This document shows positions 9,544 through 17,000 of a DNA stretch of 64,000 nt, one piece after another. The position numbers and the translations under genes are program-made. The stretch lies in IMG/VR virus record IMGVR_UViG_2529292913_000008, one strand, 5' to 3'. The notes beneath the pieces are model-generated. The model did not search any database. It worked only from the letters and a program-made list of their open reading frames with translations, and had not been told where the DNA came from. This DNA is from a virus (taxonomy: Duplodnaviria; Heunggongvirae; Uroviricota; Caudoviricetes). Position 1 is the first letter of the stretch; each line of letters begins with the position of its first letter.

Positions 9544-9999
9544 CCAGAATAATTGAATAACGGCTATTATTTAGTCGCCGCAATATCTTCAAAGTTTTTT
9601 TCTCACCCCATTGCTTTTTGCGCACAGCTTATCTGGCTTGCGGTGCGCCGAAATGTAAATTCGCCTTCAGAGTTATCCACAAAGTTATGCACTTGCAACG
9701 AGGCCATTTTCCTCATACTGTGTTTGCACACACAGGAAATGGATATTTTATTAATTGAATTTTATTAAATAATAATGATAAGGAGAAAATTTGAGATGTA
9801 ATCATGACATTAATAGATAGGGCCTGCATTACAGGCCCCAACTACATCAAGGAATTCACAGTTCCCTGATTTTTATACCGAAAACATGTGCCGTAAGTTC
9901 ACGTTAACGACTTTCTTTCACCGAATCCAACTATATAGAGGTTGGGTTTCTACGTCAACGTGAGAGCACACAGCTTTACATTTGACGAGGATTACCCTG

Positions 10000-10137
10000 A
10001 TGATTGTATTTTTTCAGTTTCTAAGTGCATTTTTAAATGCGCCTGTTCTTAGCCAAGTGCTGGCGATTGTCTTCATCGTGGTTCTGATATGGTTTTTCAA
10101 GTCAGTGATAAACAGAGGCGTGCGCTGGCTTATTTAA
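10000..10137 (+). CDS. Candidate small hydrophobic membrane peptide (45 aa)
   Basis: ATG 9 nt after a GAGG RBS; MIVFFQFLSAFLNAPVLSQVLAIVFIVVLIWFFKSVINRGVRWLI; below the ORF-track length cutoff; speculative. Confidence 0.25.
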   Translation: MIVFFQFLSAFLNAPVLSQVLAIVFIVVLIWFFKSVINRGVRWLI

Positions 10138-10675
10138 TGTCGCGCTGAGATATTAATTCCCTTGCTGTTTAACCATTTTTTGTGTGTGCTGGTGAGCGTG
10201 TGAAGGCTCAATTTGTTGCCCACCAGTATTTACTATTTCTAAGCTCCACAGTGTCACTTCCGCACAAACAACTTAGCGCGGAATCAGTATTCGGCCCAAG
10301 ATGTAAAAAGCCAACCTGCGTTATGGTTCGCATTTCCAAATAGTGTTCTGAACGCCCGTGCCGGGCGCGAGATGTGGATTAGCGTTCGCGCTATGCTGAT
10401 ATACGGCTTTAGACTTTCCATATTGCTGACAGGCTTTATCTGCGGTTTTTTGCAGGCTATCCAGCCCATACCAGCCATCAGACTGGATGCTTACCTTTTC
10501 ACCGTCATTGTATTGCACCATCGCGAACCCAAACATAGCTATCATCGCACCGACAATACCGCTTTTCCAAAAAGCTCTAATTAGGTCATTCGTTGCCTAA
10601 TGTCCGAACTGCTAAAGCATCAAAGTTGCTGTAGAATCACCGCCAATTACTTAAGCCTGAAATAAGTGGAAGAAA

Positions 10676-12232
10676 ATGACAAGTATTCAACAACGTGCAG
10701 AACTTCATCGCCAGATCTGGCAAATTGCTAACGATGTCAGGGGTTCAGTCGATGGATGGGATTTTAAGCAGTACGTTCTGGGCGCGCTTTTTTATCGTTT
10801 TATCAGCGAAAATTTTTCCAGCTATATGGAAGCCGATGATGACAGCATCTGTTATGCAGCACTGGATGACAGCGTAATTACTGATGACATTAAAGACGAT
10901 GCCATCAAAACCAAAGGCTACTTCATCTACCCAAGCCAGCTTTTCTGCAACGTAGCTGCGAAAGCAAATACCAATGACAGACTGAATGCAGATTTAAACA
11001 GTATCTTCGTTGCTATCGAAAGTTCTGCTTACGGCTACCCTTCAGAAGCAGACATCAAAGGTTTGTTTGCTGATTTCGATACCACCAGTAACCGCCTGGG
11101 TAACACCGTTAAAGATAAAAATGCCCGCCTGGCTGCGGTTCTGAAAGGGGTTGAAGGGTTAAAACTTGGTGACTTCACCGAACATCAGATTGATCTGTTC
11201 GGTGACGCCTATGAGTTCCTGATTTCTAACTATGCCGCGAATGCCGGTAAGTCCGGCGGCGAGTTCTTTACACCGCAGCACGTCTCTAAGCTGATTGCAC
11301 AACTGGCTATGCACGGGCAGACCCACGTTAACAAAATCTACGACCCGGCAGCAGGCTCCGGTTCGCTGTTGTTGCAGGCTAAAAAACAGTTTGATGACCA
11401 TATCATCGAAGAAGGTTTTTTTGGTCAGGAAATCAACCATACGACCTATAACCTGGCGCGTATGAACATGTTTTTGCACAACATCAACTACGACAAGTTT
11501 GATATCAAGCTGGGCAATACGCTGACTGAACCACACTTCAGAGATGAAAAACCGTTTGATGCCATCGTTTCTAACCCGCCGTATTCGGTGAAATGGATTG
11601 GCAGCGATGACCCGACGCTGATTAACGATGAACGTTTTGCCCCGGCTGGCGTTCTGGCCCCCAAATCAAAAGCTGACTTCGCCTTTGTACTACATGCGCT
11701 GAACTATCTTTCTGCCAAAGGTCGTGCTGCGATTGTTTGCTTCCCGGGTATTTTTTACCGTGGCGGCGCGGAGCAGAAAATCCGTCAGTATCTGGTTGAT
11801 AATAACTATGTCGAAACCGTGATTTCACTGGCACCGAACCTGTTCTTTGGCACCACCATTGCCGTAAACATTCTGGTGTTGTCTAAACATAAAACAGATA
11901 CAAAAGTTCAGTTTATTGACGCCAGCGAACTATTCAAAAAAGAGACCAACAACAATATCCTGACCGATGCCCATATCGAACAGATTATGCAGGTATTTGC
12001 CAGCAAGGAAGATGTTGCTCATCTGGCGAAATCAGTCGCGTTTGAGACCGTTGTTGCTAATGACTATAACCTGTCGGTGAGCAGCTATGTTGAAGCGAAA
12101 GATACTCGCGAAATTATCGATATCGCTGAGTTGAATGCAGAGCTGAAAATCACGGTCAGCAAAATCGACCAGTTGCGTAAAGATATTGATGCGATTGTGG
12201 CTGAAATTGAAGGCTGCGAGGTGCAGAAATGA
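10676..12232 (+). CDS. hsdM: Type I restriction-modification methyltransferase subunit HsdM
   Basis: 518 aa with N6-adenine MTase motifs (NPPY at [11 protein letters not shown], AdoMet-binding DPAAGSGS); stop overlaps the hsdS start. Confidence 0.9.
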
Positions 12233-13497
12233 GCGAGTTGAGTTATCTGGAAAAATTGCTGGATGGGGTTGAGGTTGAGTGGAAACCCTTGAAGGATGTT
12301 TGTGATTTTAAAAATGGATTTGCATTTAAAAGCAGCTTATTTAAAGAAACTGGGTTACCGATAGTTAGAATCACAAATATAGATGGATTTAATGTTGACT
12401 TAGATGAGGTGAAATACTTTTCACTAAATGATTACAAGGAAGATTTATCCTCCTTTGAGGTATCTATGGGAAATATATTGATTGCAATGTCAGGTGCCAC
12501 TACAGGAAAAGTGGGAATTTATAAAAAAGGAACAAAATGTTATCTTAACCAACGGGTTGGAAAATTCATACCCAAAGAAAATATTCTAAACAATAATTAT
12601 TTATACCATTTTTTATTGTTAAATACAGAGACTATTTATATCCTCGCCGGGGGCGGAGCACAACCGAATCTAAGCTCAAATGCATTGATGTCAAAACTAC
12701 TCATCCCAATTCCCTGCCCGGATAATCCGGAAAAATCCCTCGCCATCCAGTCTGAAATCGTTCGGATTCTGGACAAATTTACTGCACTTACCGCTGAGCT
12801 TACCGCTGAGCTTACCGCTGAGCTTAACATGCGTAAAAAACAGTACAACTACTATCGCGACCAGTTGCTGAGTTTTAAAGAGGGTGAGGTTGAGTGGAAG
12901 GCATTGGGAGAAGTAGCCAAAATACAACGTGGGGCATCCCCCAGGCCAATTGTTAATTATCTTACTGAACAAGGAAATGGTATCCCATGGATTAAAATCG
13001 GAGATACTATCCCCGGCTCTAAATACATTGACAAAACCTTACAAAAAATAACTGCAGAGGGTGCCCAAAAATCGCGAATCTTGAACCCCGGTGATTTCGT
13101 CATTTCTAACTCTATGAGCTTTGGCAGACCATATATTTTAAGGATAACCGGAGCTATCCATGATGGATGGGCATCAATCAGCAATTTTGGTGAAAAATTA
13201 AATGCTGATTATCTGTATCACTATCTTTCATCAAAAAAGGTGAAAAATTATTGGGAAAGTAAAATCAATAGCGGGTCGGTCAGTAACTTGAATGCAGATA
13301 TTATAAAAACATTACCAGTGCCATTGCCTGATAAACAGAAACAAGAGCGAATATCTGCTCTGCTCGATAAATTCGACACCCTGACCAACTCCATCACCGA
13401 AGGTCTCCCGCGTGAAATCGAGTTGCGCCAGAAACAATACGAGTACTATCGTGACTTACTGTTCAGTTTCCCGAAACCTGAAACTGTCAGTAATTAA
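12229..13497 (+). CDS. hsdS: Type I R-M specificity subunit HsdS (type IC-like, 3 TAEL repeats)
   Basis: 422 aa with two target-recognition domains and conserved central and C-terminal regions; central [13 protein letters not shown] repeat as in the EcoR124I/II family. Confidence 0.85.
12787..12822 (+). repeat. 3 x 12-bp tandem repeat CTTACCGCTGAG inside hsdS (encodes TAEL x3)
   Basis: Perfect triplicated 12-mer seen directly in the sequence. Confidence 0.9.
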
Positions 13498-13618
13498 TTG
13501 ACCATTGCTACCGACCGGACCACCTTAACATCCGGTCTGTATATAGACTATTTTTTACGTGCCGGAAGTCACCCTTAACTCCCTTCCGGCCCTTGCCAGA
13601 CGGCACAAAGGATGCGCT

Positions 13619-16735: not shown

Positions 16736-16814
16736 CCCAATTCGTGTTTTTCTTGCGGGTTCTTAATTAAACCCGCAAGAGACCGTGGGGTTCCAAATGG
16801 CTAATATACTCCCC

Positions 16815-16901
16815 TTACCCATGCGCAACGATGCCGCCAAAAATGATAGAGAACAGCCAGAAATAGATCGCGGCCATAATGATTTTGAATGCCGTGTTCA
16901 T
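16815..16901 (-). CDS. Candidate 28-aa hydrophobic peptide
   Basis: AGGAG RBS 8 nt upstream of the ATG; MNTAFKIIMAAIYFWLFSIIFGGIVAHG; downstream of a C1-operator-like site; speculative. Confidence 0.25.
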   Translation of the reverse strand: MNTAFKIIMAAIYFWLFSIIFGGIVAHG

Positions 16902-16928
16902 ATTTTCAGCTCCTGTGATTGATTGGAT

Positions 16929-16959
16929 ACATGCCGCGCCTTGCGGCATGTTTTTATTT
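16929..16959 (+). terminator. Rho-independent terminator-like hairpin with T-run
   Basis: catgccgc-gcct-tgcggcatg followed by tttttatttt. Confidence 0.5.
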
Positions 16960-16983
16960 TCACTTTCTCTGTTTTAAAAATCA

Positions 16984-17000
16984 AGACTTATTAGAGCAAT
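16984..17000 (-). promoter_or_regulatory. C1 operator-like site (15/17)
   Basis: agacttattagagcaat (reverse-complement orientation), adjacent to the pap-like stop codon. Confidence 0.45.

Follow-up and report, generated by a model that had tools for sequence, protein, structure and literature searches.

A complete, probably active type IC hsd cassette in a known variable region of a P1-like phage-plasmid

The type IC family of restriction–modification (RM) systems was originally defined by genetic complementation and subunit exchange among its members (PMC12707154). In its members EcoR124I and EcoR124II, two units of a short repeat in hsdS go with the target GAA(N6)RTCG and three units with GAA(N7)RTCG, respectively (PMC12707154, Table 1 and its footnote c; PMC3874165); EcoDXXI and EcoPrrI likewise have the four extra residues and N7 spacers (PMC12707154, Table 1; PMC3874165). 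Gains and losses of units of this TAEL repeat are known in vivo for EcoR124I/II (PMC3874165; PMC12707154). A link between phage P1 and type IC hsd genes is given in the title of Tyndall et al. 1997, as cited in PMC12707154. Venturini et al. 2019 (PMC6906374) described a type I RM system “substituting pmg genes” in pSvP1, from which P1's res-mod system is reported to be absent, and the region from pmgT to humD is variable region 8 of P1-like phage-plasmids (PMC9603915). Here we consider a 64,000-nucleotide stretch of the IMG/VR virus record IMGVR_UViG_2529292913_000008 (hereafter the window), in which an hsdM-hsdS-hsdR operon lies between the P1-like genes hot and pap.

We conclude with high confidence, judging from sequence comparison, that on a P1-like phage-plasmid of the pig enterotoxigenic Escherichia coli (ETEC) lineage this operon forms a complete type IC system, probably an active one, carried by a 6.24-kb cassette in a region already known to be variable, where it replaces the equivalents of pmgT-pmgU-pmgV and runs in the opposite orientation. 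The association of P1 with type IC systems is already known, having been published in 1997, 2004, and 2019, and the finding is in that sense ordinary. The sole new detail here is a third 12-bp unit in hsdS, a minor allele of a known kind.

Subunits and family membership of the operon

The first-pass annotation of this DNA, made from the sequence alone, had claimed a complete plus-strand hsdM-hsdS-hsdR operon of EcoR124-like type; we found the three open reading frames (ORFs) where it had placed them, each with its full domain set (Table 1), and the assignment to type IC was borne out by full-length near-identity of HsdM and HsdR, by the EcoR124_C domain, and by the conserved regions of HsdS. 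The hsdM and hsdS ORFs overlap by 4 bp, and a 121-bp gap separates hsdS from hsdR. In HsdM, Pfam identifies N6_Mtase (E = 2.5e-121) and HsdM_N, the NCBIfam hsdM model TIGR00497 matches at 646 bits, and EcoR124 HsdM (PDB 7bst_D) matches over the full length (1142 bits, E = 0). HsdR contains the Pfam domains HSDR_N, SWI2_SNF2/ResIII, T1R_D3, and EcoR124_C (the last with E = 1.5e-71). The hsdR reading frame extends from a GTG at 13559 through 16735, and because residues 21-1058 of this long ORF match the whole 1038-amino-acid (aa) EcoR124I HsdR end to end (PDB 2w00_A, 2288 bits, E = 0), we take the ATG at 13619 as the true start; the hsdR genes of relatives are annotated as 3117 bp. The displayed part of that alignment has 11 substitutions in approximately 1,010 residues, with the nuclease (D...ELK), GSGKT, and DECH motifs present.

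At the level of type I RM systems, Pfam, NCBIfam, and PADLOC match HsdM, HsdS, and HsdR, all far above their cut-offs. For membership of the type IC (EcoR124) family, we looked for the EcoR124_C domain together with likeness of HsdM and HsdR to EcoR124I, EcoDXXI, or EcoPrrI at the level that permits subunit interchange, and found both. The operon also has the type IC gene order, hsdM-hsdS-hsdR, and a type IC layout of HsdS, which starts and stops inside the second conserved helix and has a central region of the kind that holds two to three TAEL repeats. Taken at the sequence level, the operon is thus a bona fide, intact type IC system.

Several P1-like copies of such modules have been hit by insertion sequences (ISs), and the module of the window might be a decaying, nonfunctional relic of the same sort. 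In the closest relative, pETEC1731, hsdR is interrupted by IS1203; hsdM and hsdR annotations are fragmented in vB_EcoM-673R5 (hereafter 673R5); and the window plasmid itself carries several IS insertions and possibly a broken pmgS. Against these stand the module's own genes: none of the three ORFs is shortened, HsdM and HsdR do not differ from the products of the uninterrupted pSvP1_F genes, and both are approximately 99% identical to the crystallized, active EcoR124I subunits, with catalytic motifs intact. We therefore regard a relic as very unlikely, and prefer the reading of a complete and probably active system.

By analogy with EcoR124I, HsdS and two HsdM subunits would form the methyltransferase (M2S), methylating an adenine in both halves of a bipartite target; with two HsdR subunits added (R2M2S), it would become a translocase-nuclease, driven by ATP, whose cuts in incoming unmodified DNA fall at a great distance from the site. 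The target would be set by the two recognition domains and its spacer by the central helix of HsdS. Such a system could shield both lysogen and plasmid from competing phages and plasmids, and on entry into a new host, restriction would be held back through the kind of assembly-based control that type IC systems are described as having (PMC12707154).

Transcription of the operon can be considered only provisionally. In EcoR124-type systems, hsdR is transcribed from its own promoter, and the promoter-like site that the consensus scan matched between hsdS and hsdR (Table 1) is a candidate, if a speculative one, for a separate hsdR promoter. For hsdM and hsdS, the leader at the left end of the cassette would presumably, and again speculatively, hold the promoter. 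Beyond the 3′ end of hsdR, a hairpin followed by a T-run on the plus strand (16929-16951), within the P1 flank, was identified by a terminator scan (fold z = -5.27) and can serve, by its placement, as the hsdR terminator. A second hairpin, at approximately 16751-16780 in the cassette tail, has an 11-bp stem (-27.2 kcal/mol, z = -3.25) and no U-tract on either strand. An Rfam search of 8800-17600 for small RNAs returned only a subthreshold GcvB match (E = 0.45) over the terminator hairpin, which we take as chance. Facing the 3′ end of hsdR is the pmgT promoter region, with predicted promoter elements at 16979-16984 (-35) and 16956-16961 (-10) and the C1 operator Op88/OpmgT at 16984-17000. One may speculate from this geometry that the C1-repressed promoter exerts prophage-state-dependent antisense control of restriction.

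Table 1. Position and character of the features discussed, in window coordinates.
Feature	Position	Strand	Description
doc-phd-humD-lxr of P1/P7	6001-7524		blastn, 97%
humD	6431-6820	-	P1 backbone
IS10	7525-8853	-	1329 bp; 100% match to IS10; DDE_Tnp_1 transposase at 7538-8746
P7 upf93.6-like gene	8854-9257		blastn
hot	9292-9543	-	DNA polymerase III theta homologue; Pfam DNA_pol3_theta, E = 2.6e-32; aligns with P1 hot; bounds the slot on the left
upfO-upfN-upfM homologous stretch	9544-10197	-	retained P1 backbone; blastn 82% to P1, 77% to P7
Remnant of gene X	10321-10579	-	88-aa putative lipoprotein gene, start-less; 97.7% to plasmids without hsd, up to 10579
Cassette left end/hsdM leader	10571-10675	+	approximately 100 bp; common to plasmid-borne copies in differing left contexts
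hsdM	10676-12232	+	518 aa; Pfam N6_Mtase and HsdM_N; TIGR00497
hsdS	12229-13497	+	422 aa; two Methylase_S domains; specificity subunit
TAEL repeat	12787-12822	+	12-bp unit CTTACCGCTGAG, three in tandem; encodes (L)TAEL three times in the central conserved helix of HsdS
hsdS-hsdR intergenic region	13498-13618	+	promoter-like site TTAACA-18-TATTTT at 13525-13554 (consensus scan, pattern match)
hsdR	13619-16735	+	1038 aa; translocase-nuclease subunit; intact
Cassette tail	16736-16810	+	75 bp; common to 673R5, not P1 or P7
Resumed P1 backbone, pmgT promoter/C1 operator region	16811-16999	-	98% identity to P1
pap	17000-17506	-	P1 phosphatase; Pfam HAD_PNKP; aligns with P1 and P7 pap; bounds the slot on the right
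pmgQ/ppp	19143-20533	-	P1 backbone

Recognition domains and the TAEL repeat of HsdS

Alignment with EcoR124 HsdS (PDB 7bst_A) shows near-identical N-terminal, central, and C-terminal conserved regions, and two target recognition domains that both differ from those of EcoR124I. Since both recognition domains are unlike those of EcoR124I, a target other than GAA(N6/7)RTCG is expected. Among otherwise similar cassettes the recognition domains of hsdS are shuffled. We also aligned HsdS with four other P1-borne HsdS proteins, of which that of 673R5 has three TAEL units.

The window's hsdS has three units as well, and it is here that it departs from its closest relatives. Every other hsdS found with the same recognition domains (in pSvP1_F, in pETEC1731, and in a plasmid present in two AW1.7 assemblies) has two units, and all three complete-genome matches to this hsdS span 1257 bp. 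Without the four residues of the extra unit, HsdS is identical to WP_001293041.1. Because three units stand in the central helix, as in EcoR124II and EcoDXXI, an N7-type spacer is predicted: the extra unit probably alters the recognized DNA site, and the analogy predicts the same two half-sites as in the sister plasmids with a spacer one bp longer. A literature search with the HsdS protein accession found no methylome data.

The third unit could also be an artefact of assembly or sequencing, the true hsdS being the common 418-aa allele with two units. No copy of the exact 422-aa protein is present in a collection of 15 billion proteins, in which the 418-aa form occurs on 91 contigs, and the four other copies with these recognition domains all have two units; moreover, two homopolymer differences in pmgS of the window are perhaps sequencing errors. 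What speaks for a real allele is the nature of the change, in which exactly one 12-bp unit has been added in frame to a repeat whose length is known to vary in both directions in vivo (PMC3874165; PMC12707154), and the occurrence of natural three-unit type IC alleles on P1-like elements such as 673R5. The third unit is, in addition, the only difference in 6,240 bp. On this evidence we consider an artefact unlikely. The fuller proposal, that the repeat is real and represents a natural switch of the EcoR124I-to-EcoR124II type (N6 to N7) on an otherwise base-identical cassette, giving a site different from that of the closest relatives, we judge to have about an even chance of being correct.

If the proposal is true, the three-unit repeat could set up a restriction barrier between near-clonal P1-like plasmids and phages. 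The variant would then be a tidy natural case of a type IC specificity change by slippage on a 12-bp repeat, a textbook mechanism, and could be used for studying restriction barriers between near-identical mobile elements.

The slot, its flanks, and the history of the cassette

To map the slot, we combined blastn comparisons with P1, P7, and phage 673R5 with alignments of the junctions. As the first-pass annotation had suggested that such alignments would do, comparison with P1 and P7 delimits the cassette, which comprises 6,240 bp from 10571 to 16810. In the same slot, P1 has pmgT-pmgU-pmgV and P7 has eight unrelated genes. On the right, the junction at 16811 corresponds exactly to position 84482 of the P1 record. 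The GenBank/RefSeq record of P1 states that its positions 84263-84482 match DNA downstream of the EcoDXXI hsd locus at 96% identity and that 84399-84482 are 98% identical to R124/3 sequence downstream of hsdR; it further describes the stretch from doc-phd to the last humD bases as identical to what lies upstream of EcoDXXI hsd, which is the left junction of 673R5. The window has the arrangement of a P1-flanked type IC locus, with P1 DNA directly after hsdR and the P1 hot-upf stretch upstream.

The left end is defined by the relatives. Homology to phages 673R5 and phi456 begins at 10571. Among complete E. coli genomes, cassette homology starts at 10571 or 10583 in plasmid copies and at 10673 in chromosomal copies; in the chromosomal type IC copies, the match is confined to the genes themselves, beginning 3 bp ahead of the hsdM ATG and ending with the hsdR stop codon. 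The break also falls in a gene, called X here, that is intact in pLKSZ04: in the window, cassette DNA has taken the place of its first three codons, with the ATG among them, and Phe stands where the lipobox would have its Cys. The remnant (X′) is probably a pseudogene marking the left break of the replaced operon.

Several statements of the first-pass annotation about the surroundings can be judged against this map. The minus-strand orientation of the flanking P1 genes humD, hot, pap, and pmgQ/ppp was confirmed, and the flanks it had put at about 1.1 kb and 0.26 kb measure 1132 bp (hot to hsdM) and 264 bp (hsdR to pap). Its view that they hold only small hydrophobic ORFs of unknown function was too narrow, as they contain the diverged P1 upfO-N-M stretch, a gene remnant, the cassette tail, and the pmgT promoter with the C1 operator. 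Its suggestion that small pmg/upf genes had been displaced stands for the equivalents of pmgT-U-V, which are replaced, and fails for upfO/N/M, which are retained at 82%. The idea of defense cargo in a variable slot agrees with the other genes that P1 and P7 have there, and was already in print. It had allowed that the operon would be backbone if P1-family genomes carried it at the same junctions, and this is half the case: 220 of 634 genomes share the right junction, and P1 and P7 are without the operon.

These counts come from 5,426 complete E. coli genomes, of which 634 have the P1-like pap-pmgS backbone, 220 the hsdR-pap junction, and 59 the X′-hsdM left junction as in the window; the hsdR-pap genomes thus amount to approximately a third (about 35%) of those with the backbone. 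Over its full 64 kb, the window shows at least 99.8% identity to pETEC1731 (NZ_CP122822.1), a pig-ETEC plasmid, apart from IS content and an IS186 in opposite orientation. Aligned with that of pSvP1_F (NZ_MN510446.1), the cassette shows no mismatch and a single gap of 12 bp, and the HsdM and HsdR proteins are identical. Because of this near-identity to pETEC1731 and pSvP1_F, we conclude that the window plasmid inherited the module and did not acquire it recently. The cassettes of 673R5 and phi456 are approximately 96% identical to it.

Such figures invite the stronger view that the module is simply backbone, passed down vertically in a P1 sublineage for so long that exchange is irrelevant to this plasmid. 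In its favor are the identity of at least 99.8% to pETEC1731 and the mismatch-free cassette of pSvP1_F, the junction shared by about 35% of backbone genomes, and a cassette divergence between P1-like elements (approximately 96% identity) near that of the backbone (97-98%). On the other side, P1, P7, and pLKSZ04 differ in the gene sets of the slot, and the same cassette is found in at least two left contexts, namely the X′ remnant (the 59 genomes above) and the phd promoter/humD 3′ end (673R5, EcoDXXI). The shuffling of recognition domains also counts against it, as do the occurrence of the cassette on other plasmids, with short P1 flanks, and on chromosomes, without those flanks, and the lower G+C content (35-41% in hsdS versus 47-51% in the backbone). 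A pure backbone origin is therefore rather doubtful, and we retain the reading of an exchangeable cassette: the module is a common, old alternative allele of the slot, not a fresh acquisition.

With regard to how the cassette moves, the features of a transposon- or integrase-borne island, such as terminal repeats, a target-site duplication, or a recombinase next to the cassette ends, were not found, and a repeat search found no direct or inverted repeats linking the cassette ends at 10571 and 16810. The nearby IS10, 1.7 kb away and flanked by its own 9-bp target duplication (AGCCCAGCA, at 7516-7524 and 8854-8862), was considered as the bringer of the hsd module and rejected, as relatives with the same junctions have no IS10. 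Most likely, this cassette without transposon-like ends is exchanged between P1-like elements when their conserved P1 flanks undergo homologous recombination.

Some observations weigh against the overall account. The proposed route by homologous recombination is a reading of mosaic patterns. The consensus scan called no hsdMS promoter in 10571-10675, where visual inspection shows a TAGAAT at 10632-10637 with no more than a weak -35 element in front of it. An attempt to read the half-sites from similarity to EcoR124 HsdS in the PDB, the sole characterized type IC HsdS compared, was abandoned, as its recognition domains are unrelated. Finally, two homopolymer indels in pmgS leave some assembly error possible, although a clean 12-bp gain is not a typical homopolymer error.

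P1-like phage-plasmids are common in E. coli, and the type IC system that approximately a third of them carry in the slot will affect the range of phages and plasmids that can enter their hosts. Beyond correct annotation, the significance of the present locus is small, the association having been known since 1997.

A number of smaller features of the flanks and backbone were noted along the way. On the left, the blastn segment 9301-10194 corresponds to P1 hot-upfO-upfN-upfM at 82% identity, and the upf stretch includes two DnaA boxes that are also annotated in P1 (TTATCCACA at 9663-9671 and TTATGCACT at 9675-9683). Within the upfM-like part lies a very hydrophobic plus-strand ORF of 45-51 aa (9982/10000-10137), with a weak hairpin behind it at 10193-10210; it is listed among the hypothetical proteins of pLKSZ04, and in general appearance it might be taken for a small membrane toxin. 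On the right, a hydrophobic ORF of 28 aa on the minus strand (16815-16901, MNTAFKIIMAAIYFWLFSIIFGGIVAHG) has a good AGGAG ribosome-binding site and follows directly after the C1-controlled pmgT promoter. The ORF is conserved at 98% in P1, whose record leaves it unannotated; it ends 4 bp short of the hsd junction and appears in pSvP1_F in a 44-aa version from the Prokaryotic Genome Annotation Pipeline (PGAP). Pfam and NCBIfam scans gave no family for the small flank ORFs (the 45-aa hydrophobic ORF, the X remnant, the 28-aa ORF, and the upf93.6-like and lxr-like genes).

The IS10 insertion cuts the 3′ end off an lxr/upf94.2-like gene (6995-7528), leaving an ORF of 177 aa compared with 194 aa in relatives, and is absent from the near-identical pETEC1731, pSvP1_F, and pRHB27-C18_2. 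In pETEC1731, the hsdR gene, intact in the window, is interrupted by IS1203 (window approximately 14437; NZ_CP122822.1 28005-29316), and that plasmid has probably lost restriction but not modification. An IS186-like element of the window (49213-50583, with a 372-aa IS4-family transposase) is reversed relative to the same site in pETEC1731, with a 39-bp overlap of the blast segments at both ends; either an in-place inversion or an independent insertion at a palindromic hotspot could account for the reversal. Window positions 53071-53399 and 53987-54662 also match a second place in pETEC1731 (8944-10614, in the icd/antirepressor region) at 83-86% identity, and because of this second match we conclude that pETEC1731 carries two diverged immI-like ant/icd modules, one of them in the window. 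Downstream of pap, pmgS (17579-18841) is split into ORFs at 17579-18151 and 18097-18783 by indels relative to P1 and pSvP1_F, T5 for T6 at 18208 and A8 for A7 at 18700, the A8 being present in pETEC1731 as well; either the frameshifts are real, and would render the prophage defective, or the assembly is in error here.

Comparison with known systems

The prototype of the type IC family, EcoR124I/EcoR124II on R124 and R124/3, shares with the window its gene order, near-identical HsdM and HsdR, the conserved regions of HsdS, and the 12-bp TAEL repeat, and in R124/3 the P1-derived DNA after hsdR begins at the same base. It differs in its recognition domains and in its host replicon, which is a conjugative plasmid rather than a P1-like phage-plasmid; furthermore, according to the P1 record, R124/3 has only approximately 84 bp of P1 sequence downstream of hsdR.

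The elements closest to the window are pSvP1/pSvP1_F, from porcine ETEC O157, and pETEC1731, which agree with it in backbone, slot, junctions, HsdM, HsdR, and the recognition domains of HsdS. They are set apart by their two TAEL units (418-aa HsdS), against three units and 422 aa in the window, and by IS content: pSvP1_F has IS91 copies in the left flank, pETEC1731 has IS1203 in hsdR, and the window has IS10 in the lxr-like gene.

EcoDXXI, vB_EcoM-673R5, and phi456 have the type IC cassette with its left end at approximately 10571-10583 and its right end at 16810, the same pmgT-promoter/pap flank, and three TAEL units. In these elements, however, the left end joins the phd promoter and the last humD bases, and humD, lxr, hot, and upf are missing; the window keeps hot, the upf stretch, and the X′ remnant, and its HsdS recognition domains differ from theirs. 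In 673R5, the annotations of hsdM and hsdR are, as mentioned, in fragments.

In P1 and P7 themselves, pmgT-pmgU-pmgV and upf86.8-upf90.8, respectively, occupy the same slot, between Op88 and the pmgT promoter beside pap on one side and upfM-hot on the other, with promoter, operator, and leader ORF 98% conserved in the window. Those genes lie on the strand of pap, under the C1-controlled promoter, and have putative morphogenetic or unknown functions, whereas the hsd genes of the window lie on the opposite strand and converge on that promoter.

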